Positions 128 through 41,436 of a stretch of DNA of 41,436 nucleotides are shown piece after piece. The notes beneath the pieces were generated by a model. That model was given only the letters and a program-made list of their open reading frames with translations. It was not told the DNA's origin and did no database searches. Positions within the stretch are counted from its first letter, which is position 1, and each line of letters opens with the position of its first letter. The stretch is from a virus: IMG/VR virus record IMGVR_UViG_3300048894_000085, positions 1 through 41,436 of that record; one strand, given 5' to 3'. A program made the position numbers and the translations under genes.

Positions 128-317
128 TCAAGACGAGTTAACTAATCATTATGTTAAAAGAAAAATAGCATATAGAACAGGGCTTAAATCAGCTGATATT
201 CCTGAAGAGTTAGTTGAAGCAAAAAGAGCGGTTATGGTATTGAATCGTGGTATTAGACGAAAAAGAGATGAATTTATTTTTAATTACATAGAGGAGAAAG
301 AAAATGGCAAAAGATGA
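1..317 (+). CDS. C-terminal part of the junction-spanning double zinc-ribbon/basic protein (continues from 40766-41436; 286 aa in total)
   Basis: The frame of ORF 21..317 is continuous with the open frame from ATG 40766 once the 127-bp overlap is collapsed (41330 equals position 21, and 41330-40766=564=188 codons). It ends with the family motif 'HYVKRKI...IPEELVEAKRAVMVLNRGI'. Confidence 0.7.
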   Translation, partial: QKQKSYMKYQISYLDKHIIDNAYLRHKIEERLVKKKAANKRDQDELTNHYVKRKIAYRTGLKSADIPEELVEAKRAVMVLNRGIRRKRDEFIFNYIEEKENGKR

Positions 318-585
318 TAGTAAGATTAAAAGCATTACAGAATTACGAGATCATGCACTCATGGCGATAGAGCGGTTATCGAATGGTGAAATTGACACAG
401 CGACGGCTGCTGCCACTGGCAAGCTCTGTGATAGCGTTATTCATACGATTAAAACCCAGCTTGAATATTCACGAATGGTAGGGATTGAGCCTGAGATTCC
501 GTTTATGTTGACACAAGTGAAAGGTAATTTAATTGAGCATGACAATAAAAAGCCGAATTTAGCTTTAGATCATAAACGTAGATAA
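304..585 (+). CDS. Hypothetical protein, 93 aa
   Basis: ORF with an ATG overlapping the upstream stop. Composition is helical and hydrophilic. No motif recognised. Confidence 0.6.
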   Translation: MAKDDSKIKSITELRDHALMAIERLSNGEIDTATAAATGKLCDSVIHTIKTQLEYSRMVGIEPEIPFMLTQVKGNLIEHDNKKPNLALDHKRR

Positions 586-951: not shown

Positions 952-1824
952 ATGATAGAGAATAAAAAAGAAGTAAATTCAATTAAACTTTTACATGCTA
1001 TTCGTCAAATTCCCGCTACTTTAATCTCTGCAAACGAAAAATATATCTTAACTATTATTCTCTCTTGTATAAATATTGACAATATAACTTGGCATTCAAT
1101 GGATATTATTGCTGAATTTGCATGTGTTAGTAGATGGACAATTAGTAGACATATTAAAACATTAGAAGATAAAAAATTCATTTCAATCGTAAAACCTAAT
1201 CATTATACCCATGATGAAACAAATCATTATAGTTTAAATATTGACCTAATCTTATCTTTTTCTGTGGATAAGTCGCGTAGCAAATTGCTACATGATCCTA
1301 AAGTCGCGTTGCAATCTGCTACGCAATATACACAAGTCGCGTTGCAAGTTGCTCCAAGTCGCGTAGCAGATTGCAACGCCCTATATAATGAAGTAGAAGA
1401 AAAAAGAAGAAAGAAAGAAGAGAGGAAACGCGCACGCGAAAAACGCGTGCCACTCTCTGATTATTTTTTACCCAATGAAAAACTGAATGCGCTCATTCGT
1501 GAGACTTCAACCAAATCGGGCAAGTCCCCAGAAACCCTTTTGGCAAAATTTAAAAATATCCAAAAATCCAAAGACGGAACCAGCGCAGATTGGAATGCAG
1601 AGTATGAAAATTATTTGCACAATGAAAAACCACAGGGGTATGTCACAGGTGTCAGGGGTCAAGGCAACACTGAAATCAAAAGCACTGTACAATTTTATGG
1701 CGTAGGACACCCAGACTATGAGCGAGATAAGGAAATCAGGGAACGGGCAGAGCGAGAAAGGATTGCTAGAACTTCGCTCTCCCTCATGGATATGCAAGAA
1801 AAACGAAATAGCAAGTCACATTAA
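952..1824 (+). CDS. Replication initiator-like winged-HTH protein (lambda O / plasmid Rep-like) containing its own iteron array
   Basis: N-terminal HTH pattern 'MDIIAEFACVSRWTISRHIKTLEDKKFISIV'. Four 21-bp iterons and a purine tract lie inside the gene. C-terminal half is basic. Confidence 0.7.
   Translation: MIENKKEVNSIKLLHAIRQIPATLISANEKYILTIILSCINIDNITWHSMDIIAEFACVSRWTISRHIKTLEDKKFISIVKPNHYTHDETNHYSLNIDLILSFSVDKSRSKLLHDPKVALQSATQYTQVALQVAPSRVADCNALYNEVEEKRRKKEERKRAREKRVPLSDYFLPNEKLNALIRETSTKSGKSPETLLAKFKNIQKSKDGTSADWNAEYENYLHNEKPQGYVTGVRGQGNTEIKSTVQFYGVGHPDYERDKEIRERAERERIARTSLSLMDMQEKRNSKSH
1270..1376. repeat. Four iterons AAGTCGCGTWGCAAnnTGC (1270, 1301, 1334, 1356): candidate replication origin
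   Basis: Copies: aagtcgcgtagcaaattgcta / aagtcgcgttgcaatctgcta / aagtcgcgttgcaagttgctc / aagtcgcgtagcagattgcaa. Spacing is 31, 33 and 22 bp. Each contains a GCA..TGC dyad. Confidence 0.7.
1395..1450. promoter_or_regulatory. 34-nt all-purine tract (1395-1428) followed by palindrome GCACGCG-aaaaa-CGCGTGC (1432-1450), next to the iterons
   Basis: Read directly. The layout of iterons followed by an easily melted asymmetric tract mirrors lambda ori inside gene O. Confidence 0.55.
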
Positions 1825-3899: not shown

Positions 3900-4148
3900 T
3901 TATTTTAATAATTCATCAAGTGATTTATCAAACGCATTAAAAATAATGAGTTCTAATACTTTACTTTTTGCAATGTTAATGCGTGCTTCCTGACATAAGC
4001 GAGCGGTGAGTTCGTCTAGTGCTTCGACTGCATTTAAAGTAATACGATATGTTTTAGTGAGATATTTCGATTCGCTCATTAAACCTATTTTTTCATCTTT
4101 GGGACTACTGGTTGTCATCATGCTTGAAACTCCTTTTAATTTAGACAT
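3900..4148 (-). CDS. Ribbon-helix-helix partition adaptor (ParG/ParB-like, type Ib)
   Basis: 82-aa protein directly downstream of ParA and overlapping it. C-terminal 'YRITLNAVEALDELTARL...SKVLELII' has a beta-helix-helix pattern. Confidence 0.55.
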   Translation of the reverse strand: MSKLKGVSSMMTTSSPKDEKIGLMSESKYLTKTYRITLNAVEALDELTARLCQEARINIAKSKVLELIIFNAFDKSLDELLK

Positions 4149-4912
4149 ATAATTTCCTCTGCTAACGCGTTAAAATCTTTTGCACCGTTAGAATGCGGTG
4201 CATAAAGAAAAATGGGTAATCCTTCGATCTTCGCTTGATTGATATTTTCATCTTGACGAATAATGGTTTTCAGAATTTGGTCATAAATCATCATCTCAGA
4301 TAGTTTGGCTTCGATATATTCGTTCGTTTTAGATTTTCGTACATCCTTTTGGTTGCGTAAAATATGATAGGAATGCGCTCTGTTTTCTTTTATTTCACGC
4401 GTGACTGCAAATAAATCATACATACCTTCTAATGCATCATTTTCATAAGTAATAGGAACGATAATTTTATCTGCTGCTAAAATTGCATTCACTGTTAAAT
4501 CGCCAAGAGTAGGGCAGCAATCAATAAAACAATAATCAAACTGATCTTTTATTTTATGAAGTTGACGATATAAAAGAGTTTCACGATAAGGCCGTGAACT
4601 CATTTCACGTTGCGCCATAGCTAAATCAATACGTGCGGGCATAATTGATAAATATTGAGCTATTTCTCGATTATCACTGACTGACATAATAGCACGGGAT
4701 GGATGGGATATTCTCTGTAAAATAACGTCTGAGACTGTATAAGCATCTTTTAAGTGAGTATCTGGAATGGTGCCTTTAGTTGCATTGCCACTCGGATCAA
4801 GATCGACTAATAAAGTACGTTTTGATTTTGTCGCAAAACAATAAGCGAGATTATAAGCGCACGCTGTTTTACCTACGCCCCCTTTTTGATTAATTAAAGC
4901 TATGATTTTCAT
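4136..4912 (-). CDS. parA: ParA/Soj-family partition ATPase
   Basis: Deviant Walker A 'NQKGGVGKT', 'LLVDLDPSGNAT', 'IDCCP' and 'VPI' motifs. 258 aa. Confidence 0.9.
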   Translation of the reverse strand: MKIIALINQKGGVGKTACAYNLAYCFATKSKRTLLVDLDPSGNATKGTIPDTHLKDAYTVSDVILQRISHPSRAIMSVSDNREIAQYLSIMPARIDLAMAQREMSSRPYRETLLYRQLHKIKDQFDYCFIDCCPTLGDLTVNAILAADKIIVPITYENDALEGMYDLFAVTREIKENRAHSYHILRNQKDVRKSKTNEYIEAKLSEMMIYDQILKTIIRQDENINQAKIEGLPIFLYAPHSNGAKDFNALAEEIICLN

Positions 4913-4913
4913 T

Positions 4914-5351
4914 TTATTTTGTCCTATCTTTTATTAATTGTTTTAATTGAATTAATGCACGTTTTGTCTGTATCAATTCTTGTGGTATTTTACTTTTTTT
5001 TATTTTTAATTGAGAAAGTAATAATCTTTTTATATAAGAATCATGAAGTGTCTCTTTTGTTTTTTTAGAATATTGTTTTTGATAGTCAATTCCATTAGGT
5101 GATTTATTCCATTGCAAAGCTTTTTGTATACGTTTTTCGCGATTTTTCAATTCAGTTTTTTTATTATAAATATAAACTGCATTAGGATTCTTAGCTTTAA
5201 AATTCATTGTTTTAATAATATTACATAAACGACATAATTTAACTAATAATGGTTTTCCTGTTTTTTTAGAAATATTTTTTGATGAATAAATCGCAATGTC
5301 TTTTTCATCTAAAATACCATGAGTTTTACATTTTTTATGTTTATGCATCAT
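4914..5351 (-). CDS. Zinc-ribbon/basic/helical family protein (paralogue B)
   Basis: 'CKTHG...LCRLCN' followed by 'LHDSYIKRLL...IPQELIQTKRALIQLKQLI'. The same architecture occurs in 13675-14121 and twice in 40766-317. Confidence 0.7.
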   Translation of the reverse strand: MMHKHKKCKTHGILDEKDIAIYSSKNISKKTGKPLLVKLCRLCNIIKTMNFKAKNPNAVYIYNKKTELKNREKRIQKALQWNKSPNGIDYQKQYSKKTKETLHDSYIKRLLLSQLKIKKSKIPQELIQTKRALIQLKQLIKDRTK

Positions 5352-5550
5352 AGGTAGCTTGAGCCAGCTCGTCTGTAGTAGATTTTTCATTCCATTCCCA
5401 TGTATTTAATTGCATTACACGGCGTATTTTAGATAACGGGAAGTAACGCGCTACAGTATCGGCAGTGTATTTAAAAGCTGTAAAAGCGAGTGTATGTTCT
5501 TTATTGCTGCCACGTTTATCCTCTTCGTAAACTTGATACCAGATAATCAT
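5341..5550 (-). CDS. Hypothetical protein, 69 aa
   Basis: ORF packed tightly within the operon. No motif recognised. Confidence 0.5.
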   Translation of the reverse strand: MIIWYQVYEEDKRGSNKEHTLAFTAFKYTADTVARYFPLSKIRRVMQLNTWEWNEKSTTDELAQATYDA

Positions 5551-6402: not shown

Positions 6403-6425
6403 GTTCGTTTCCTGTAATGTTAATA

Positions 6426-6454
6426 TATTATAATATAATGTTAATATAAATGCA
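6426..6454 (-). promoter_or_regulatory. Candidate sigma70 promoter TTGCAT-17-TATAAT (minus strand)
   Basis: Reverse complement of 6449-6454 is ttgcat, and of 6426-6431 is tataat. About 24 nt upstream of ATG 6402. Confidence 0.5.
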
Positions 6455-8101: not shown

Positions 8102-8134
8102 GTTGTTTGTCCTATATAATGTTAATGAAATGCT

Positions 8135-8163
8135 AATATAATACATTAATAATATAATAGCAA
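8135..8163 (-). promoter_or_regulatory. Candidate promoter TTGCTA-17-TATATT (minus strand)
   Basis: Reverse complement of 8158-8163 and 8135-8140. About 30 nt upstream of ATG 8101. Confidence 0.4.
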
Positions 8164-8597: not shown

Positions 8598-9035
8598 ATG
8601 ATGCGAAAACCTTTAACGCCAATGCAATATTCATTCTGTAATGAATACATCAAGAATGGTTTTAATGCTTATCAAGCTGCGTTACATGCTGGTTATAGTG
8701 AAAGCTATGCTAATACTCAAATGGGCGCCTTAATGAATAAACCTGTCATTAAAGATCGCTTAATTAAAGCTTATAAGAAAATGGAAAACGCTCAGATTGA
8801 TAAGCTTGCAATCACATTCACTGATAAAGCTAACATACTGTTACGCATTATCTATGATGTGATACCTAAAGATGGCTCAGAGCCTAAGCGAGCATACTAT
8901 AAGGATGCGATTAAGGCTATGGCTGAGCTAAACAAGATGCAAGGTGATTACGCACCTGAGAAACGCATGAACATGACAGTGAATGCAACGCTTGATAAGC
9001 TCACTGAAGCACGCAAAGCGTATGAGGAGTTCTAA
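8598..9035 (+). CDS. terS: Terminase small subunit (Terminase_2-like)
   Basis: 'LTPMQYSFCNEYIKNGFNAYQAALHAGYSESYANTQMGALMNKPVIKDRL' matches the conserved N-terminal HTH signature of Terminase_2 small subunits. Confidence 0.8.
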   Translation: MMRKPLTPMQYSFCNEYIKNGFNAYQAALHAGYSESYANTQMGALMNKPVIKDRLIKAYKKMENAQIDKLAITFTDKANILLRIIYDVIPKDGSEPKRAYYKDAIKAMAELNKMQGDYAPEKRMNMTVNATLDKLTEARKAYEEF

Positions 9036-9086
9036 GCTATTGATTCGTCTTGTGAATATAAATGTAATAAAATATAATATAATGTA

Positions 9087-9115
9087 TTGACAATGTAATA
9101 CATTATATTTATAAT
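9087..9115 (+). promoter_or_regulatory. Perfect consensus sigma70 promoter TTGACA-17-TATAAT
   Basis: ttgaca at 9087-9092, a 17-nt spacer, and tataat at 9110-9115. Confidence 0.7.
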
Positions 9116-9121
9116 ACTCTC

Positions 9122-13173: not shown

Positions 13174-13369
13174 TGAATATAATAAAGGCTTTAATGATGC
13201 GATTAATAAAATAATATTCTATTGCAGAGAGCAAGCTGAAAATTATGCCAGACTTTATACTGAAGCGCCAAAAGACTTAAAGTCTTCATTTTCTCATAAA
13301 GCGATAGCTATAGTGGATTTTAGGATATTGATTGAAGATTTATTTCAAACAGAGGTTATTGATGATTGA
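13166..13369 (+). CDS. Hypothetical protein, 67 aa
   Basis: Start MSDEYNKGF overlaps the upstream stop by 8 nt. Confidence 0.5.
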   Translation: MSDEYNKGFNDAINKIIFYCREQAENYARLYTEAPKDLKSSFSHKAIAIVDFRILIEDLFQTEVIDD

Positions 13370-13685
13370 CAAATGCCAACGCTGTGATACAGAAGACGAT
13401 GAATTAAGAACGTTATTCATGTCATGTGGATATGATATGAGCGAACTTGAATTACCTTTTATGATAAAAACAGATGGATCATTTGCTTTATTTGTTTGCA
13501 AGCGATGCCGGTCTGACTGGATGCATTTTATCAGAATATGGTTTCAAACGAATGCGGCTTCTAATGAATCTATAGGAAGTGGAATTTTTATCAGAGATTT
13601 AGGTTGCAGTCGTGAAGTATCTGAGGAGACATTTAAAAAAATAAATCCTGATGTTGAACCCACGAGATTTATCGATGATCAGTAA
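13362..13685 (+). CDS. Cys-rich hypothetical protein, 107 aa
   Basis: 'MIDKCQRCDT...FVCKRCRSDW'. GAGG SD before ATG 13362. Confidence 0.5.
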   Translation: MIDKCQRCDTEDDELRTLFMSCGYDMSELELPFMIKTDGSFALFVCKRCRSDWMHFIRIWFQTNAASNESIGSGIFIRDLGCSREVSEETFKKINPDVEPTRFIDDQ

Positions 13686-14121
13686 GCGTTGCAAAAAACA
13701 CGGTGATTTAAAGCCAGAAGATATAAGAATAGATAAAAAATATGGTCGAGAATATAAAAATTGTGTCATATGTAGAAGAGAGTATCAACAAAAACAGACA
13801 TTAAGCGGTAAAAGAAAAGAACTATCCAGAAAAAGAAGACTTAAACCTGATTTTTTAGAAAAACGTAGGATGTACGATAAAAATTATCATGAACGCAGAT
13901 TAATAGTCGCTAAGGCTATGTATGAAAGAAAAAAAGATGATCCTTGTTTTAAAGAGAAAAATAATAAAAGAAGTCTAAATAGGTATAAGGTAATAAAAGA
14001 ATCATTTCATGATTCATATGTTAAAAAAGTATTACGATTTCACAAAGATGCAACACCTGAGATCTGTGAATTAAAAAGACAAATCATTTTACTGAAAAGA
14101 ATAATAAGGGCTAAAAGATGA
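13675..14121 (+). CDS. Zinc-ribbon/basic/helical family protein (paralogue C)
   Basis: 'RCKKHGDL...NCVICRR', a K/R-rich middle, then 'FHDSYVKKVL...TPEICELKRQIILLKRII'. Confidence 0.7.
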   Translation: MISKRCKKHGDLKPEDIRIDKKYGREYKNCVICRREYQQKQTLSGKRKELSRKRRLKPDFLEKRRMYDKNYHERRLIVAKAMYERKKDDPCFKEKNNKRSLNRYKVIKESFHDSYVKKVLRFHKDATPEICELKRQIILLKRIIRAKR

Positions 14122-14402
14122 AATGCAAGCATGATCCGACTTTAACAATAGGCCCAATCGGTATGTATCATTGCCCTGAATGTGGTGATATGGTGCTTGC
14201 TGGTATGGCGCATGGTGATCAGGATGAAGCTGAAAAAGAGTATGGCGAATTTTGTGATCGTGAGATGGAAAAAATGATGGTATGGCTCAATGAGCGATTA
14301 CCAAAAGATGAGTTCATCAGTATAACTCAAACAATGAAAAATACATTGATTGAGTTATGGTTAAGAGCGGAACCCGTAATGCGACAACAAGGGTGCTTTT
14401 AA
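14118..14402 (+). CDS. Hypothetical protein with a CPxC knuckle, 94 aa
   Basis: 'YHCPECGDMV'. ATGA-coupled. Confidence 0.55.
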   Translation: MKCKHDPTLTIGPIGMYHCPECGDMVLAGMAHGDQDEAEKEYGEFCDREMEKMMVWLNERLPKDEFISITQTMKNTLIELWLRAEPVMRQQGCF

Positions 14403-14974
14403 TGGAAACGTGGTTTACGAGTGACACACATTTTGGCCATAGTAATATTCTTGAATATGAGAAAGAAGCGCGTCCCTTTGAAACAATAGAGAGAATGAAT
14501 GAAGAACTCATTATGCGTTGGAACTCAGTCGTCCATCCCCATGATACTATTTACCATCTTGGTGATTTTTGTTTTGGTAAACATAACCTTAGCATTGCTA
14601 CTCGACTTCATGGGAAAAAAAGGCTTATCCTGGGAAATCATGATCTATACCCTTGCAGCGATTATTTGCAGTATTTTAATAAAGTATTTGGTGTGACTTA
14701 TTGGAAAAATTGTATATTAAGTCATATGCCAATTCATCCTACTTTATTAGGATCACGATTTTTTTTAAATCTACACGGACATTTGCATAGTAAGCATGTT
14801 AGAAGAAATGTATTTCATATGATGGAAATTAAAACAGATAAAGGCCCTGTTCAATTTTCAAAATTTTTTCATGAAGAGAATGATCCTAATTATTTTAATG
14901 TGAGTTGTGAGCAAAATAACTTGACCCCGATCCACAGTGATGAAATTATGAAGCGATTGAAAGAGTTGGAATAA
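14402..14974 (+). CDS. Metallophosphoesterase (calcineurin-like phosphatase fold)
   Basis: 'FTSDTHFGH', 'YHLGDF', 'LGNHD' and 'HGHLH' motifs in canonical order. TAATG-coupled start METWF. Confidence 0.8.
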   Translation: METWFTSDTHFGHSNILEYEKEARPFETIERMNEELIMRWNSVVHPHDTIYHLGDFCFGKHNLSIATRLHGKKRLILGNHDLYPCSDYLQYFNKVFGVTYWKNCILSHMPIHPTLLGSRFFLNLHGHLHSKHVRRNVFHMMEIKTDKGPVQFSKFFHEENDPNYFNVSCEQNNLTPIHSDEIMKRLKELE

Positions 14975-15477: not shown

Positions 15478-17007
15478 TTGAAAGACGCATCCACGGAGAG
15501 GGATCGTTTACAGCGTTCACTCTTGGCATTTACCCAAGATTTTTATTACCTTCGAACGGGTAGACGGTTTGATTTATCACAGCCTGTAGGGCGAGAGAGT
15601 CATTATCTGACTATCTGTAGGGCTTTGGTTAAAGTCATCAAGGGCGAAACAAAACGCCTGATGATCAATGTGCCACCTCGCTATGGTAAGACTGAGCTGC
15701 TCATTGAATTTGTCGCATGGGCATTATCTCAATATCCTGATTCTAATTTTCTCTATGTCTCCTATTCATTGGGTTTAGCCAAAAAACAAACAAAGACCAT
15801 TCGTCAGATTGTCGCTATGAATGAATATCGGGATTTGTTTGATGTAGCTTTATCGGGTGACACGGCAGCGCAAGGCAACTTTGAAACATCGCTCGGGGGC
15901 AGTGTCTACGCGGCTGGTGCGGATGGTGAAATAACAGGTCGTGGTGCAGGTATCAAAGGCAGTAATCGTTTTGGTGGCTGCATTGTTATTGATGATATTC
16001 ATAAACCATCTGAAGTCAGTTCTGACACGATGCGTAAAACGGTGAATGAATGGTATTTCAATACACTGCAATCCCGTCTGAATGATCCAGAGAGCACACC
16101 GATCATATTCATCGGCCAACGGCTTCATGAGGATGATCTGGCTGCAAATTTAATCAAGTCAGGTGATTGGGAGACGATTGTCATACCGGCGCTTGATGGG
16201 GCTGGAAATGCCTTACATCCTGAAATGCATAGTGTGACGATGCTGCGTAATATGCAGGAAACAATGCCCTATGTATTTTCTTCACAATACCAGCAAGATC
16301 CACTCCCTGCAGGAGGCGGTATCTTCAAACCTGAATGGTTCTTTCAGATGGATGATGAGCCTAATATTATTGCGACATTCATTACGGCTGACACTGCTGA
16401 AACCTCGAAAGATTATAACGATGCTACCGTATTCAGTTTCTTCGGTATCTATAAAATTGCGCATGGTGATATAGAGAGTGACATATTGGCCTTGCATTGG
16501 ATCGATTGTTTAGAGCTTCGTATTGAACCTAAAGATTTGGAGAAAGAGTTTTTAGCTTTTTATGCATCCTGTATGCGTCACCGGATTAAGCCACGCATTG
16601 CGGCAGTTGAGAGAAAGAGCACAGGTGTGACTCTGGCATCAGTCCTTAAGAATATTCGTGGTCTTACCATGATGGATGTGGAGCGTACAAAGCTCTCTGG
16701 TAATAAGACAACACGGTTTTTAGAGATACAACCTATTATTGCGAGTAAGCAAGTTTCATTGCCGTCCGATGGTAAGCATACGGTGATGGTATTGGAACAC
16801 ATGAGAAAGATCACGGCTAATGATACACATCGTCATGATGATATTGCAGATACTTTGTATGATGGTGTAAAGTTAGGCATTATAGACAATGTAATATTGT
16901 CACAAACCCCCGGTAAAGTCCAAGAGGACGAGCGTGTAGCGCGGGGGATAATGGGCGCATTTCATCGCGTTCTCCAATTAAGAAGTAAGCGTTATGCGGG
17001 TTTGTAG
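15478..17007 (+). CDS. terL: Terminase large subunit
   Basis: Walker A 'PPRYGKTEL', Walker B 'CIVIDDIHK', and C-terminal nuclease-type acidic motifs ('FITADTAE', 'HDDIADT'). 509 aa. TTG start preceded by 'aaggaag'. Confidence 0.9.
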   Translation: MKDASTERDRLQRSLLAFTQDFYYLRTGRRFDLSQPVGRESHYLTICRALVKVIKGETKRLMINVPPRYGKTELLIEFVAWALSQYPDSNFLYVSYSLGLAKKQTKTIRQIVAMNEYRDLFDVALSGDTAAQGNFETSLGGSVYAAGADGEITGRGAGIKGSNRFGGCIVIDDIHKPSEVSSDTMRKTVNEWYFNTLQSRLNDPESTPIIFIGQRLHEDDLAANLIKSGDWETIVIPALDGAGNALHPEMHSVTMLRNMQETMPYVFSSQYQQDPLPAGGGIFKPEWFFQMDDEPNIIATFITADTAETSKDYNDATVFSFFGIYKIAHGDIESDILALHWIDCLELRIEPKDLEKEFLAFYASCMRHRIKPRIAAVERKSTGVTLASVLKNIRGLTMMDVERTKLSGNKTTRFLEIQPIIASKQVSLPSDGKHTVMVLEHMRKITANDTHRHDDIADTLYDGVKLGIIDNVILSQTPGKVQEDERVARGIMGAFHRVLQLRSKRYAGL

Positions 17008-33494: not shown

Positions 33495-33508
33495 CAAGGA
33501 TGTTAATC

Positions 33509-35179
33509 ATGGCTAATATAAAATATACAGGTTTACCCGCTGCAACGACAGTTGTCGATGGCGACTTATGGGCGCAATCACAGAATATATCTACAACTCC
33601 TGTCAGTAAAAAAGTCACATCAACTCAATTTTGGGCATATGTCTTATCCAAAACATTAACGAATGCAGGAACTCCGAATGGTGCTGTTGCAGGAACTGCA
33701 AATCAATTATGTTTTGATTCGACAAATAAAATTATTTATATCTGTACATCTACAGGTTCATCAAGTACTGCAGTATGGAATCGTGCAGGAAATACTTTTT
33801 CTCATGCAGGAGATCCAAATGGAAATACGGCAGGACAACTTTATGATTTTGTCTATGATACTACAGGCACAAAATTATGGGTTTGCTCAACTGCTGGAAC
33901 ATCATCAACTGCAACATGGACATCCGTTACTTCTAATTTAAGTAATCCTGTCACATTAGCGCAAGGTGGTACGAATAATAATATCACTGCTGATAATGGT
34001 GGTATTGTTTATTCTGATGCATCTAAATTGCTTTTACTTGCTCATAATGCAGCTGCGGGTCATATACTACAATCAGGTGCATCAGTGGCACCCACATGGT
34101 CTACACCTACATATCCAAGTGCCAGTGGTACGTCATTACATATTTTAATTTCTGATGGTACAAATAATGTTTACAGTACACCTGCTTATCCGAATGCATC
34201 TGTAACTGCAGGAAAGGTAATTATTTCTGATGGTACTAATTACATTGCAAGCACATCCATTTTTCCAAATACTGTCGGAACTGCATTACATCTAGTCTTA
34301 TCTGACGGTACTTCCAATGTTTATTCAACACCTGCCTATCCAAATGCGAGTGTCACAGCCGGAAAAGTTATCATATCGGATGGCACTAATTATATCGCGA
34401 GCACTTCTATTTTTCCAAATACAGTGGGAACAACAGGGAAAATTTTAATTTCTGATGGTACATCCAATGTTTACAGTACACCAACCTATCCAGCAGCAGC
34501 TGGCACTACTGGTAATGTATTAACATCGGATGGAACTAATTGGTTATCTTCATCTGCTACTGGAACAGGTACTGTTAATTCTGGTTTGCAAAATCAGTTA
34601 GCTTATTATGCTGCAAATGGAACGGCTGTTAGTGGCTTAGCTACTGCTGCAAGTGGTGTACTTGTAACAAGCGCAGGAAGTATACCTTCTATTAGTTCAA
34701 CTTTACCAGCATTTACAACTTCTAGTATTACATTTAGCCCTACGACAGGTGGTATCGTTGGAACGACAACAAATGATAATGCGGACGCTGGCAAAGTTGG
34801 AGAATTTGTTTCTAGTACTATTGCAGTAGCTTCAGCTATTAATCCAGCAAATACAACTCCTACAAATTTAACTAGCATTAGTTTAACCGCTGGTGATTGG
34901 GATGTATGGGGAAATGTTGGATTTTCTCAAGATACGGTGGGTTTTACATTAGTTGTAGCTTATATTAGTAATGCAACAGCAGGAGCACTTCCCGATGCTT
35001 CTTTATATAATTCTATTTTTATAGGAGCAGCATCAGGAATGTCATCGATAGGAATTAATGCACCTGGAGTTAGATTAAGTCTATCTACAACGACTACTAT
35101 TTATATTATAGGAAGAGCCGATTATTCTGCTGGAACGACTAAAATGTTCGGCGGTATTTTTGCAAGACGTGCGCGTTAA
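33509..35179 (+). CDS. Tail fibre with internal 150-bp tandem repeats
   Basis: N-terminus 'IKYTGLPAATTVVDGDLW'. S/T/G/A-rich. Repeats of 'ISDGTN.VYSTPAYPNASVTAGKVIISDGTNYIASTSIFPNTVGT'. Confidence 0.7.
   Translation: MANIKYTGLPAATTVVDGDLWAQSQNISTTPVSKKVTSTQFWAYVLSKTLTNAGTPNGAVAGTANQLCFDSTNKIIYICTSTGSSSTAVWNRAGNTFSHAGDPNGNTAGQLYDFVYDTTGTKLWVCSTAGTSSTATWTSVTSNLSNPVTLAQGGTNNNITADNGGIVYSDASKLLLLAHNAAAGHILQSGASVAPTWSTPTYPSASGTSLHILISDGTNNVYSTPAYPNASVTAGKVIISDGTNYIASTSIFPNTVGTALHLVLSDGTSNVYSTPAYPNASVTAGKVIISDGTNYIASTSIFPNTVGTTGKILISDGTSNVYSTPTYPAAAGTTGNVLTSDGTNWLSSSATGTGTVNSGLQNQLAYYAANGTAVSGLATAASGVLVTSAGSIPSISSTLPAFTTSSITFSPTTGGIVGTTTNDNADAGKVGEFVSSTIAVASAINPANTTPTNLTSISLTAGDWDVWGNVGFSQDTVGFTLVVAYISNATAGALPDASLYNSIFIGAASGMSSIGINAPGVRLSLSTTTTIYIIGRADYSAGTTKMFGGIFARRAR
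34135..34500. repeat. 150-bp tandem repeat, about 2.4 copies, inside the tail-fibre gene
   Basis: 34135-34284 corresponds to 34285-34434, with a partial third copy from 34435. 'tctga(t/c)ggta' recurs at 34151, 34301 and 34451. Confidence 0.85.
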
Positions 35180-39716: not shown

Positions 39717-39744
39717 TTGACATATTAATTTAAGATGGTATAAA
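39717..39744 (+). promoter_or_regulatory. Rightward early promoter TTGACA-16-(TGg)TATAAA with an extended -10
   Basis: ttgaca at 39717-39722 and tggtataaa at 39736-39744. 'aaggagg' SD before ATG 39768. Confidence 0.6.
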
Positions 39745-39767
39745 GCACATATTAAGGAGGAGTTAAA

Positions 39768-39974
39768 ATGAAAAGCTCAGAAATGATAAAAAGAATACGC
39801 TTGTCTTTCTGTCTTGATCAGAAAGAATTCGGCGAACTCATCGCAATGAGCAGACAAGCAATCTGGCAATATGAAAAAGGTATTCGTAAACCTCGGCTAC
39901 CTACTATTCGTAAATTGTTAATGTTAGCAAAAAAAAATCATATAAAGACATGCACAGAAGATTTTATGGAATAA
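39768..39974 (+). CDS. XRE-family HTH regulator (Cro-like position)
   Basis: 'LDQKEFGELIAMSRQAIWQYEKGIRKPRLPTIRKL' is a classic HTH_3 pattern. 68 aa. Confidence 0.8.
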   Translation: MKSSEMIKRIRLSFCLDQKEFGELIAMSRQAIWQYEKGIRKPRLPTIRKLLMLAKKNHIKTCTEDFME

Positions 39975-40765: not shown

Positions 40766-41436
40766 ATGTCTGACTTTAAATTATCCAATGACCCCATTGT
40801 TAAATTAGATGAGAATTCTTACTATTGTAAGATTCATCCCTATGCTTTTGGCGATTCTTTTGTAGAAGTCACTAATAAAAAGACTAATACAACTATGATT
40901 CGATGTGGTTATTGTGAAAATATAAAAGAGGAAAATAAAAAACTACGTGCAGAAGAATGGCAAAAAGAGAAAGAAAATATTACGCCGTATTATGTACGGC
41001 GTATTCTTACTACAGGTCGTAATATAAAAATGCATCAAATTCCTGATGAATTAGTTGAAGTGAAAACGGCTGTCATCCAATTAAATCGTTTGAAAGAAAA
41101 AATAGATGCACCCATAAAAGTTTGTTCAAGACATGGTAATCTATATGAAAATGCTGTGATTAAAGCAGGAAAAAATAAAAGTGGTGAGCAAAAATATAAA
41201 TGTAAAGCGTGCATGAGTTCAATTCATGCTCGTAATTATCAATTAAACAAAGTTAAAATAGCTATTAGATGTGCAAAATACAGATCTGAGAATAAAGAAA
41301 AGGTGAGAGCGCAGAAACAAAAATCTTATATGAAGTATCAAATATCCTATTTAGATAAACATATTATAGATAATGCTTATCTAAGACATAAAATAGAAGA
41401 ACGATTAGTTAAAAAGAAGGCCGCTAATAAACGGGA
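40766..41436 (+). CDS. N-terminal part of the junction-spanning double zinc-ribbon/basic protein (paralogue A; continues at 1-317)
   Basis: Hand-translated. Module 1 is 'YCKIHP...RCGYCEN...YYVRRIL...IPDELVEVKTAVIQLNRL'. Module 2 starts 'VCSRHG...KCKACMS'. The frame is still open at the window end. Confidence 0.7.
   Translation, partial: MSDFKLSNDPIVKLDENSYYCKIHPYAFGDSFVEVTNKKTNTTMIRCGYCENIKEENKKLRAEEWQKEKENITPYYVRRILTTGRNIKMHQIPDELVEVKTAVIQLNRLKEKIDAPIKVCSRHGNLYENAVIKAGKNKSGEQKYKCKACMSSIHARNYQLNKVKIAIRCAKYRSENKEKVRAQKQKSYMKYQISYLDKHIIDNAYLRHKIEERLVKKKAANKR
41310..41436. repeat. Second copy of the 127-bp terminal overlap
   Basis: Identical to 1-127. Confidence 0.95.

Follow-up and report, generated by a model that had tools for sequence, protein, structure and literature searches.

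Three genes of a circular phage genome encode members of a phage protein family, very large and unannotated, for which we coined the name ZR-HLH (zinc ribbon plus helix-loop-helix) in the present analysis. The C-terminal half of these proteins and the small partner protein associated with them have no domain model, structure or cultured-phage representative. Judging from profile and structure comparisons, the N-terminal zinc ribbon and basic repeats are homologous to the region ahead of the catalytic domain in phage HNH/endonuclease VII proteins. The nuclease domain is missing, and a helix-loop-helix (HLH) of about 45 aa stands in its place. The core copy of the family is always paired with a small partner gene, the two forming a conserved pair.

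A module shared by three genes

The window analysed here (all 41,436 nt of IMG/VR record IMGVR_UViG_3300048894_000085) begins with 127 bases identical to its last 127 (1-127 and 41310-41436). This 127-nt assembly overlap indicates that the phage genome is circular, with a length of 41,309 bp. Gene A crosses the junction on the plus strand. Its 5' part (40766..41436) holds codons 1-223 and 2 nt of codon 224, and since bases 1-127 repeat 41310-41436 the gene resumes at 128..317, with its stop codon at 315-317. The sequence, the overlap, the translation and the module alignment agree on this assignment, and the HMM finds three domains in the 5' ORF. The 3' part is recovered in ORF 3-314 at 94 bits, and at 54 bits by an independent HMM.

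The whole of gene A encodes 286 aa in two modules, delimited by the module alignment. Module A1 (aa 1-113; 40766-41104) carries a zinc ribbon, C21-x2-H24 … C47-x2-C50, at 40826..40915, and C21, H24, C47 and C50 are invariant in nine orthologues. Its HLH (ITPYYVRRIL…IPDELVEVKTAVIQLNRL) lies at 40961..41095 and was identified by BLASTP, module alignments and a DNA repeat, D9 (41039-41089 against 198-248, 76% identity). A1 has no long repeat linker. Module A2 starts at 41105; its ribbon (C120-x2-H123 … C146-x2-C149, 41123..41212) is seen in the translation and in a below-cut-off resemblance to NF050000, and its HLH occupies approximately 132-263.

Genes B and C are single-module orphan copies. 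Gene B lies on the minus strand at 4914..5390, with candidate starts at 5390, 5351 or 5348 (P0009, as called by JGI, has 144 aa), and is defined by its translation, the HMM and an AlphaFold2 (AF2) model with a pLDDT of 92. Its ribbon spans about 5223-5330 and its HLH about 4929-5057, both on the minus strand. Gene C lies on the plus strand at 13651..14121, between the small and large terminase genes, with a likely start at 13675 (148 aa, P0010), a ribbon at about 13690-13773 and an HLH at about 13996-14109.

The initial annotation had described a module shared by these three genes in four copies, and alignment, BLASTP, shuffles and HMMs all bear this out. The four motif instances it quoted (YCKIHP..RCGYCEN, VCSRHG..KCKACMS, KCKTHG..LCRLCN and RCKKHG..NCVICRR) are all present in the translations. 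The module begins with a zinc ribbon (C-x2-H…C-x2-C), continues with a helical, basic 'Y..N.EK' stretch and ends in 'LxDxYVKR…DIPxELVExKR…LKR'; gene C lacks the 'DIP' because its HLH loop is shorter. The C, H, C and C of the ribbon and the Y, P, L and A of the C-terminal block are invariant or nearly so in alignments of 12 and 24 modules. Pairwise BLASTP over the C-terminal ~43 aa gave E values of 1e-8 (A1/A2), 2e-9 (A1/B), 7e-8 (A2/B) and 2e-6 (B/C). Smith-Waterman comparisons gave z scores of 9.8, 10.2, 4.5, 7.7, 5.7 and 8.8 against 1000 composition-preserving shuffles, with the real score matched by 0-2 of the 1000. With z between 4.5 and 10, module similarity is significant against composition-matched sequences, and low complexity therefore lacks the power to explain it.

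The ribbon region by itself gave weak pairwise scores (z about -0.3 to 2.8, except for B/C at 6.9), so that its similarity is seen mainly at the profile level. All four modules were recovered by HMMs for which no sequences other than unrelated IMG/VR ones had been used (B at 61 bits, A2 at 54, A1 at 37-40 and C at 33). Together with the shuffles, these independent HMMs rule out chance or low complexity as the source of the similarity. A six-frame HMM scan of the window returned exactly genes A, B and C. All four copies in the window combine a CHCC/CCCC ribbon, basic repeat helices and a C-terminal HLH, the elements that define ZR-HLH.

Family size and the nuclease-like N-terminal half

A profile of 24 modules searched against 1.84 billion representatives gave 6,360 matches at E ≤ 1e-3 and 1,074 at E ≤ 1e-10, placing the size of the family in metagenomes at no fewer than 6,360 clusters at 50% identity. 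ZR-HLH is thus far from confined to the present genome, a point absent from the initial annotation. Temperate siphovirus-like genomes carry members, as do T7-like contigs with DNA polymerase A and, in both Bacteroidota and Gammaproteobacteria, prophage-like regions; one prophage copy is that of Lewinella cohaerens DSM 23179 (L022). The typical member is a single module of 150-180 aa, and fusions of 2-4 modules are also seen. Conservation is concentrated in two blocks, at profile positions 1-75 and 111-152, on either side of a variable basic linker. The ribbon is CHCC, sometimes CCCC, and the HLH of ~45 aa follows the pattern 'LxDxY(V/I)(K/R)..L…DIPxEL(V/I)ExKR….LKR.IK'; it is the best-conserved part of the protein and is under strong purifying selection family-wide. 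In the AF2 model of gene B, four beta strands are followed by helices at 40-53, 55-82, 86-99, 103-114 and 123-143. The model of the two-module protein A (pTM 0.36, from an alignment of only nine sequences) shows two HLHs without defined packing, giving no sign of intramolecular pairing between them.

The initial annotation did not recognise the family, and the database searches likewise placed it in no well-characterised one. Pfam, NCBIfam and PHROGs gave nothing significant for A, B or C, and PADLOC-DB 2.0 gave no match for these proteins or the partner at E ≤ 0.1. Searching the PDB by sequence returned only spurious C2H2 zinc-finger linker matches. By fold, Foldseek with both AF2 models found nothing in the PDB at E ≤ 0.001, the best matches being eS21 (E 0.46) and the Rim2 zinc finger (E 2). 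Protein A had no tblastn match among GenBank phages, the C-terminal (HLH) consensus had none there even at E ≤ 10, and PLSDB plasmids gave no match. An IMG/VR search with protein A alone found no relative, and three short proteins were all that came back when 148 HLH segments were used in a word-indexed search; IMG/VR loci were found with a degenerate DNA pattern for the HLH.

Relatives of the N-terminal half were detected among nucleases. The top Foldseek match against BFVD was a 'Recombination endonuclease VII' (A0A6J5KY21; E 6e-4, prob 1.0, 28% identity over 116 columns). With the family consensus, tblastn matches were confined to the N-terminal ends of genes annotated as HNH/endonuclease VII in Bacillus, Lactococcus, Flavobacterium and Roseobacter phages; the family HMM scored 53, 48 and 34 bits on their products. 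Members P0150 and P0132 match phrog_1035 endonuclease VII (9e-16), phrog_2340 endonuclease (5e-11) and phrog_5558 (4e-15), in every case through the ribbon and repeats only. The similarity to endonuclease VII is likewise limited to these parts (profile positions 47-154 of 271 in the PHROG; the 116 columns in BFVD). The window proteins have the ribbon and 'NPEK-repeat' arrangement of these nucleases, with two knuckles ~20-25 residues apart and Y..N.EK helices. For single window proteins this link is weak (gene B against phrog_2340, E 4e-4); it becomes significant when the family profile and other members are used.

Catalytic domains were absent from A, B and C. None matched HNH, Endonuclease_7 or other nuclease families in Pfam even at E ≤ 10, and Lactococcus C41431_30, the positive control for HNH, was detected at 7e-11. 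In the latter protein the Pfam HNH domain occupies aa 131-181, C-terminal of the shared region. The window proteins are all-helical after the ribbon and lack the beta-beta-alpha-metal core of HNH proteins (PF01844 and relatives), and they lack the DHDH…CN-type His-Me finger of endonuclease VII (PF02945; phrog_1035).

The closest known counterparts are the zinc-ribbon HNH/endonuclease VII endonucleases (phrog_1035, phrog_2340, phrog_7091), exemplified by Lactococcus phage C41431 gp30/phi31 ORF4 and Flavobacterium phage elemoA gp9. Xu & Gupta (2013) described 'Group 1' ZR-HNH nickases, in which CxxH/CxxC zinc ribbons precede the nuclease; stand-alone ribbon proteins also exist, and deletion of the ribbon in a phage HNH nickase weakened activity and relaxed specificity (PMC3592412). 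By profile and structure, this group has the same N-terminal ribbon ([CxxH] or [CxxC] plus [CxxC]) and basic 'Y..N.EK / NPEK' repeats as ZR-HLH, and its members are also phage-encoded, small and often multi-copy. However, A, B and C have no catalytic domain, their HLH C-terminus is unmatched by PHROG, Pfam or GenBank phages, and the family has a conserved small partner. The stand-alone zinc-ribbon proteins (ZRP), proposed as regulators or specificity subunits (PMC3592412), and Bacillus phage Eyuki gp17 (132 aa, annotated as 'HNH endonuclease', 53 bits against the family HMM and no Pfam HNH domain) resemble ZR-HLH in being nuclease-free ribbon and repeat proteins. These proteins, by contrast, have no C-terminal HLH, and their definition depends on an adjacent HNH gene near cos and terminase, whereas the conserved neighbour of ZR-HLH is a partner of ~90 aa and not an HNH gene.

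Two further comparisons concern zinc-binding regulators. The zinc-binding domain of IS1 InsA/IS1595 (NF050000, PF03811), which in InsA is part of a DNA-binding regulator, resembles the second knuckle region, 'G..G.q.YrCk.C', of A2 and of the family consensus. A2 scored 26 bits against a cut-off of 28, B and C had no match, and the family consensus gave E 3e-4; ZR-HLH also lacks a transposase or InsA helix-turn-helix and has a different genomic context. The P2 Ogr/P4 Delta zinc-finger activators of late genes, small phage zinc-binding regulators, offer a functional analogy only. P4 Delta is a tandem covalent duplication of the Ogr module, and gene A is likewise a tandem duplication, of a module found singly in related phages. 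There is, however, no sequence similarity (PF04606 is absent from Pfam matches of A, B and C at E ≤ 10), size and architecture differ, and RNA polymerase contact has no support for ZR-HLH.

A small partner gene and the conservation of copies

Gene A is followed on the plus strand by a 93-aa gene at 304..585, which overlaps its end by 14 nt, is preceded by a GAGGAG ribosome-binding site at 291-296 and scores 60 bits with an independent HMM. This partner gene was absent from the initial annotation. Its family follows the pattern '..LRDhaL..L..GeID.aeA…KL…VIstIKtQLEYAr…P.IPF(M/L)', and homologues directly follow a member in L001, L002, L009, L010, L012, L055, L056, L057, L058, L059, L060, L029 and L040. 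For a wider view, 66 IMG/VR loci had been chosen solely by the DNA pattern within the HLH, and 65 of them encode a ZR-HLH member. All 48 partner matches in the IMG/VR loci are co-directional with and abut a member, 38 downstream and 10 upstream, and no match away from a member occurs in 530 kb of these loci. A diverged partner-like ORF holds the same position in 11 further loci. In the window, gene A has a co-directional, abutting neighbour of this type (~60-95 aa, 'LRD…GeID…IKtQLEYA…P.IPF'), and B and C do not. The genes beside them (5341-5550, 13332-13685 and 14118-14402) were considered as diverged partners and showed no similarity. The partner consensus had no match among GenBank phages.

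Among related phages, a two-module A-type gene keeps its position in L001, L009, L010 and L012, with a single-module version in L002, L055 and L058; P0050 and P0046 are such single-module forms at the gene A locus. Across these relatives (35-59% identity) gene A and its partner remain fixed ahead of the replication genes. In the window lineage the context is a replication initiator: the first gene past the pair, after a gap of 366 nt, encodes an O-like initiator (952..1824, plus strand, phrog_270/391). Elsewhere the pair accompanies exonuclease, Erf and SSB genes (L025) or an SbcD-like protein (L029). A small Hjc/VRR-NUC-like nuclease follows it in about 22 IMG/VR loci, and in about 23 its surroundings include an Hjc-like nuclease, DUF3310 and DNA polymerase A.

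The other copies are less stable. The B-type copy upstream of parA is missing in L012, a B-like copy is split by a frameshift in L005/L009, and L005 and L055 each have the C-type copy in duplicate. The earlier proposal that one copy is kept in each major operon, and hence that the proteins are operon-specific regulators, is not supported by this comparison, as only the A-type position is conserved. An AT-rich palindrome, ATGTAATACAT, was considered as a common operator near A, B and C and was unenriched (33 matches against 34 expected); no DNA repeat common to the three neighbourhoods was found as a candidate binding site.

The comparison with relatives also weakens gene B as a partition protein. 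The B stop codon lies 1 nt from the start of a parA-like partition ATPase gene directly downstream in the same operon (4136..4912, minus strand; phrog_164, E 5e-53), which is itself outside the ZR-HLH family, and a centromere-binding or parA-regulating accessory role would fit that arrangement. In L001, however, the B orthologue and parA have a 70-aa gene between them, L012 has an unrelated gene upstream of its parA, and the frameshifted B-like copy of L005/L009 has no parA nearby. An 82-aa gene downstream of parA (3900-4148) probably occupies the more usual site of a centromere-binding partner. A partition role for gene B is therefore highly improbable.

We also weighed whether the modules are selfish, mobile genes of homing-endonuclease type that lost their own nuclease, persisting as decaying passengers or as trans-acting specificity subunits that recruit a separate nuclease to target sites via the HLH or partner. 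Several diverged copies in different operons would be in line with such an origin, as would the N-terminal homology to HNH/endonuclease VII proteins. Presence and copy number vary between close relatives, with one copy frameshifted (L005/L009), and such variation is typical of free-standing homing endonuclease genes. Nearby nuclease genes would also fit: the Hjc/VRR-NUC-like nuclease after the pair in the IMG/VR loci, and, in the window, an endonuclease-like gene at 2634-2927 in the operon of gene A. Stand-alone zinc-ribbon proteins beside HNH nickases, proposed as 'mini-specificity subunits', provide a precedent (PMC3592412). We nevertheless consider a homing origin of this kind unlikely, as the A-type gene and its partner are fixed in position across diverged relatives and the HLH is under strong purifying selection, unlike decaying relics. 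In addition, no HNH gene lies beside any window copy, and the partner is a small helical protein (60-90 aa) and not a nuclease. The paralogues share only ~76% DNA identity over 51 nt, arguing against recent mobility.

A putative role in early phage DNA transactions

The explanation we tentatively favour is that ZR-HLH is a nuclease-free DNA-binding protein working with its small partner in early DNA transactions or their regulation. A nucleic-acid-binding role, as the initial annotation had suggested, is plausible from the composition of A, B and C (pI 9.7-10.2; 22-33% K+R) and from the N-terminal homology to HNH/endonuclease VII. The ligand is presumably DNA rather than RNA or protein. The zinc ribbon and basic repeats would bind DNA, by homology with the nuclease front end, whose zinc ribbon aids DNA binding and specificity, and the HLH may serve in self-association and/or in docking the small helical partner (304..585), whose translation would be coupled to that of gene A. 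Sequence and fold searches detected no relatives of characterised function for the HLH or partner, and the roles proposed for these two are deduced from gene order and conservation. Gene A and its partner are the conserved core; they sit in the early operon, immediately before the replication/recombination genes, and would most probably take part in early DNA transactions of the phage or in the regulation of these. Genes B and C are orphan paralogues which kept the HLH, accessory copies turning over between related phages; since their ribbon and linker differ, they presumably bind other sites but share the same partner or interface. The HLH is conserved in thousands of phages whose hosts differ widely, which would also be consistent with a conserved role in catalysis or with one in host targeting.

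Binding of RNA by the ribbon and the long basic helices, with phage mRNA, the ribosome or RNA polymerase as target, would make these proteins translational or antitermination factors, much like certain small phage regulators with zinc fingers. The proteins are indeed very basic with extended helices, zinc ribbons can bind RNA, as in Nob1 (PMC3592412), and the best, non-significant, PDB Foldseek match is the ribosomal protein eS21 (E 0.46). However, no match was significant, the only significant relatives of the ribbon and repeats are DNA endonucleases, and the genomic context is one of DNA metabolism. There is no plus-strand terminator after gene A; in the hairpin at 592-609, it is the minus strand that carries the T-run. 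We regard RNA binding as very unlikely, and the antiterminator function suggested initially found no specific support.

Anti-defence or host takeover is also unlikely. Here the pair would bind and neutralise a host factor (for example RNA polymerase, SSB-interacting proteins, or a nuclease of restriction or other type), with paralogues broadening the target range. Early regions rich in small accessory genes and the fast copy-number turnover are consistent with such a module, and some members match phrog_5558, a 'Lar-like restriction alleviation protein', through ribbon and repeats (E 4e-15), although that PHROG name is most likely due to a generic zinc ribbon. The conserved P-x-I-(P/D)-F-(L/M) near the partner C-terminus recalls the SSB C-terminal tip, 'DIPF', in resemblance only, and in most partner members it is not at the extreme C-terminus. 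There was no relation to PADLOC entries, and hosts as different as Bacteroidota and Gammaproteobacteria argue against a narrow host target. The anti-defence decoys proposed in the initial annotation gained no specific support: the strong basic charge of A, B and C is the reverse of that of decoys which mimic DNA, and they are thus not DNA mimics.

Returning to a DNA-binding protein and its partner, a bolder version is possible if doubtful: ZR-HLH and the 'IPF' partner may be a widespread undescribed two-component system, in which interchangeable ribbon DNA-targeting subunits, whether single, tandem-fused or additional orphan paralogues like B and C, dock via the invariant HLH to one common effector or adaptor linking them to the replication/recombination or transcription machinery. 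If so, the DNA-binding domains of homing endonucleases would have given rise to a modular targeting system that works without a nuclease. ZR-HLH ranks with the larger parts of phage 'dark matter', and shows the DNA-binding front end of phage HNH/endonuclease VII nucleases re-used at large scale without a nuclease and coupled to a dedicated small partner. The outcome is a defined gene pair, open to experiment, for a function located at the start of phage replication/recombination modules. Should the ribbon/repeat region turn out to recognise DNA in a programmable manner, its occurrence in single, tandem and orphan forms would provide a natural series on how specificity is encoded. Within the replication initiator gene that follows the pair in the window, four 22-nt iterons were found at 1270-1377 (repeat family D5, inverted repeat I22).

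Genome layout and the shared module

The window holds an entire circular genome with a terminal overlap, either circularly closed or terminally redundant. Sequence comparison showed that positions 1-127 are an exact duplicate of 41310-41436; the unit length is 41,309 bp and G+C is 36%. Because of this 127-nt overlap, ORFs at the ends are split by linearisation, and gene A runs off the contig end and resumes further in. Translated across the overlap, it occupies 40766..41436 plus 128..317 on the plus strand and encodes 286 aa.

PHROG scans placed gene A fourth in an early rightward operon, which has a TTGACA-17-TATAAA promoter at 39717-39745 (plus) and begins with a Cro-like HTH gene (39768..39974, plus). 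Directly after gene A lies a 93-aa gene (304..585, plus), termed the partner, and a 366-nt gap separates this from an O-like replication initiator (952..1824, plus), followed downstream by an endonuclease-like gene and an endolysin. Gene B (4914..5390, minus) lies in a leftward operon and abuts a ParA-like gene. Gene C (13651..14121, plus) is found among small ORFs between the small (8598..9035) and large (15478..17007) terminase genes. The three transcription units described in the initial annotation were thus borne out. About 6.4 kb of small ORFs splits the two terminase genes, with gene C and a phosphoesterase (14357-14974) inside, an arrangement shared by the relatives L005, L055 and L012.

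All motif instances quoted for the proposed four-module zinc-ribbon family were found in the translations of A, B and C. Protein A was split at residue 113 into modules A1 and A2, and the four modules were aligned with their orthologues. The C-x2-H … C-x2-C ribbon was invariant, the lysine/arginine-rich linker variable and the C-terminal block conserved, 'L(T/H)DxYVKR..L….(D)IPxELVExKRA…LKR'. When the C-terminal ~43 residues were compared in pairs by BLASTP, the E-values were 2e-9 to 2e-6. Smith-Waterman comparison against 1000 composition-preserving shuffles gave z = 4.5-10.2; the similarity thus withstands the shuffle comparison that the initial annotation had named as able to refute it. The zinc-ribbon part by itself shows weak pairwise similarity, and its support comes from the profile. 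Using only unrelated IMG/VR sequences as input, HMMs recovered B (61 bits), A2 (54), A1 (37-40) and C (33), and a six-frame HMM scan of the window returned no further copy. The module as first observed is therefore confirmed.

A large family related to phage HNH and endonuclease VII proteins

Genes A, B and C had no significant match in Pfam, NCBIfam, PHROGs or PADLOC. Two hints were obtained, gene B with phrog_2340 ('endonuclease', E 4e-4) and A2 with the IS1/IS1595 zinc domain (26 bits, below the cut-off of 28). No tblastn match to protein A was found among 50,697 GenBank phage records, and a word-indexed search returned a handful of orthologues. Exhaustive HMMER with a 24-module profile recovered 6,360 representatives at E<=1e-3, of which 1,074 also pass E<=1e-10; the whole set consists of unnamed metagenomic proteins, mostly single modules of 150-180 aa and some with two to four modules. 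Across 101 single-module members there are two conserved blocks, the ribbon with the first helices and a C-terminal helix-loop-helix (HLH), with a variable basic linker between them; the first knuckle is CxxH in 90 and CxxC in 9. The ZR-HLH proteins are thus a very large family with a three-part module.

In the AF2 model of the gene B product (pLDDT 92), a ribbon of four strands precedes five helices, with the final pair (103-114 and 123-143) forming the HLH. The model of protein A (pLDDT 86) has a pTM of only 0.36, indicating modules without a fixed mutual arrangement. Neither model had a significant structural neighbour in the PDB.

Among predicted viral structures, the top match was an uncultured-phage 'Recombination endonuclease VII' (E 6e-4, 116 columns, 28% identity). 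Where the family consensus matches annotated HNH/endonuclease VII genes, in phages of Bacillus, Lactococcus, Flavobacterium, Roseobacter and others, it covers only their N-terminal ~65 residues, and the family HMM scored three of these proteins at 53, 48 and 34 bits. Members with a CxxC ribbon match phrog_1035 (endonuclease VII, 9e-16), phrog_2340 (5e-11) and phrog_5558 ('Lar-like', 4e-15), with every match confined to the ribbon and repeats. The ribbon and repeats are homologous to the non-catalytic N-terminal region of these enzymes. In the Lactococcus protein a Pfam HNH domain lies behind the shared region, whereas ZR-HLH proteins carry the HLH at that position and have no nuclease domain. 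The HLH had no match in Pfam, PHROGs, the PDB or GenBank phages. That the family consists of nuclease-recruiting proteins or relic homing-endonuclease relatives is unlikely.

Phage HNH nickases carry such N-terminal ribbons ([CxxH]/[CxxC]), whose removal weakens activity and relaxes specificity, and stand-alone ribbon proteins of unknown function have been noted (Xu and Gupta, PMC3592412). The ribbon/repeat half is of a type already known from the zinc-ribbon DNA-binding regions of phage HNH/endonuclease VII proteins and from stand-alone ribbon proteins. The nuclease-replacing HLH, the dedicated partner gene and the family scale are undescribed in the resources searched, and a limited literature search found no paper describing any of them. 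Bacillus phage Eyuki gp17 (L006, 1465-1863), annotated 'HNH endonuclease', is a 132-aa protein of zinc ribbon and NPEK repeats only, with no Pfam HNH domain reported at E<=1; the shared N-terminal region is the probable source of its label.

The partner gene and the conserved unit

The partner gene goes beyond what the initial annotation had found. Its first 14 nt overlap the end of gene A, and a GAGGAG ribosome-binding site of its own precedes it. Homologues with 31-68% identity occupy the same place in every fetched relative of the window phage and also occur in the unrelated contigs L056 and L057. The partner HMM matches only ORFs abutting a ZR-HLH gene. A genome scan yielded matches in Bacteroidetes (L029), Methylococcaceae (L040) and, more weakly, Pseudomonadota (L025) MAGs, and L058, L059 and L060, loci picked regardless of neighbours, also matched. 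For a larger sample, IMG/VR was scanned with a degenerate DNA pattern for 'DIPxEL[VI][ED]xKR', and 65 of the 66 loci picked encode a family member. The HMM matched 48 ORFs in these loci, all co-directional with and directly adjoining a member (38 downstream, 10 upstream), and none away from a member in 530 kb. Eleven more loci have a diverged small ORF of partner type in the same position. The window's own partner gene scored 60 bits with an IMG/VR-only partner HMM and had no match in Pfam, PHROG, PADLOC, the PDB or GenBank phages. Each genome examined has one partner gene, and the neighbours of genes B and C are unrelated to it. The partner is thus tightly linked to a ZR-HLH gene, in both gene orders.

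A conserved P-x-I-(P/D)-F-(L/M) motif closes the partner family, in many members 2-6 residues from the C-terminus rather than at the very end (window 304-585; L057 4056-4247; L040 308-535; L060 2485-2694). It is reminiscent of the 'DIPF' C-terminal tip of SSB.

The context of the pair is early and one of DNA metabolism. Elsewhere its neighbours are SSB, Erf and an exonuclease in L025, an SbcD-like protein in L029, and a phosphoesterase next to a Sak4-like ATPase-encoding gene set in L056. About 23 IMG/VR contigs have the order member, partner, small Hjc-like nuclease, DUF3310 and, further on, family A DNA polymerase. The Hjc-like nuclease, with a faint Pfam Hjc match in L057, is ~100-112 aa and directly follows the pair in L066 (the same locus as L057) and ~22 other IMG/VR loci, where pair, nuclease and DUF3310 protein make up a recurrent block of four genes.

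The A type and partner keep their position, preceded by the Cro-like gene plus two or three small genes and followed by the replication initiator, with two modules in L001, L009, L010 and L012 and one in L002, L055 and L058. The B type is separated from parA by another gene in L001 and is absent upstream of parA in L012; a partition role for gene B, which in the window abuts the ParA-like gene, is highly improbable. A B-like member on the minus strand (L005 3171-3682, equal to L009 9708-10219) is broken into two ORFs that overlap in different frames, one carrying the ribbon and the other the HLH. Contigs from two different sequencing runs show an identical split, and the locus is a pseudogene or else a frameshifted gene. 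L005 and L055 each have the C type in duplicate. Thus, the conserved unit consists of A and its partner, with B and C as accessory orphans that turn over fast. The paralogues are old, sharing only ~76% DNA identity over 51 nt. The interpretation given in the initial annotation is supported in part; one regulator kept per operon does not fit a conserved A and partner beside B and C copies that are variously absent, frameshifted or duplicated.

Taken together, we tentatively favour a composite role. The ZR-HLH proteins may bind DNA, given their pI of 9.7-10.2, the presence of the ribbon and what the homologous region does in nickases. The HLH would mediate self-association and/or dock the partner, as no other part of the module is as conserved and hydrophobic, orphan paralogues keep it while ribbon and linker diverge, and tandem fusions suggest a unit working as a multimer. 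The pair could act in early DNA transactions of the phage or in regulating them. Other roles for such an early pair are anti-defence or host takeover, which we regard as improbable; RNA-directed functions for these basic proteins are more improbable still.

Other features of the genome

A large ORF (33500-35179) without any PHROG match holds repeat family D1 (34107-34541), five overlapping 135-nt copies at 75-nt spacing with 61-70% identity to the reference copy. On the minus strand, 3900-4912 encodes the ParA-like ATPase and then an 82-aa gene. The window ORFs scanned included no integrase, and the phage may persist as a plasmid prophage.

The O-like initiator gene contains four 22-nt direct repeats resembling AAGTCGCGTAGCAAATTGCTAC (1270-1377) and a perfect 19-nt inverted repeat (1306-1324/1361-1379). 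Together these repeats make up an iteron-bearing origin of the lambda style. Immediately past the small terminase gene, at 9087-9115, is a promoter that matches the sigma-70 consensus perfectly, TTGACA-17-TATAAT, embedded in an AT-rich element (9059-9116) that recurs at three other intergenic places, 2909-2965, 6420-6448 and 8123-8159 (repeat families D4 and D6, inverted repeat I2). Its core palindrome is without statistical enrichment; the recurring elements are possible shared promoter/operator modules. A GC-rich hairpin, GCCAGTCGAAAGACTGGC, lies at 592-609 between the partner and replication genes, with a T-run on the minus strand only and no minus-strand gene there. It could terminate a short antisense RNA, for which lambda oop is the analogue.
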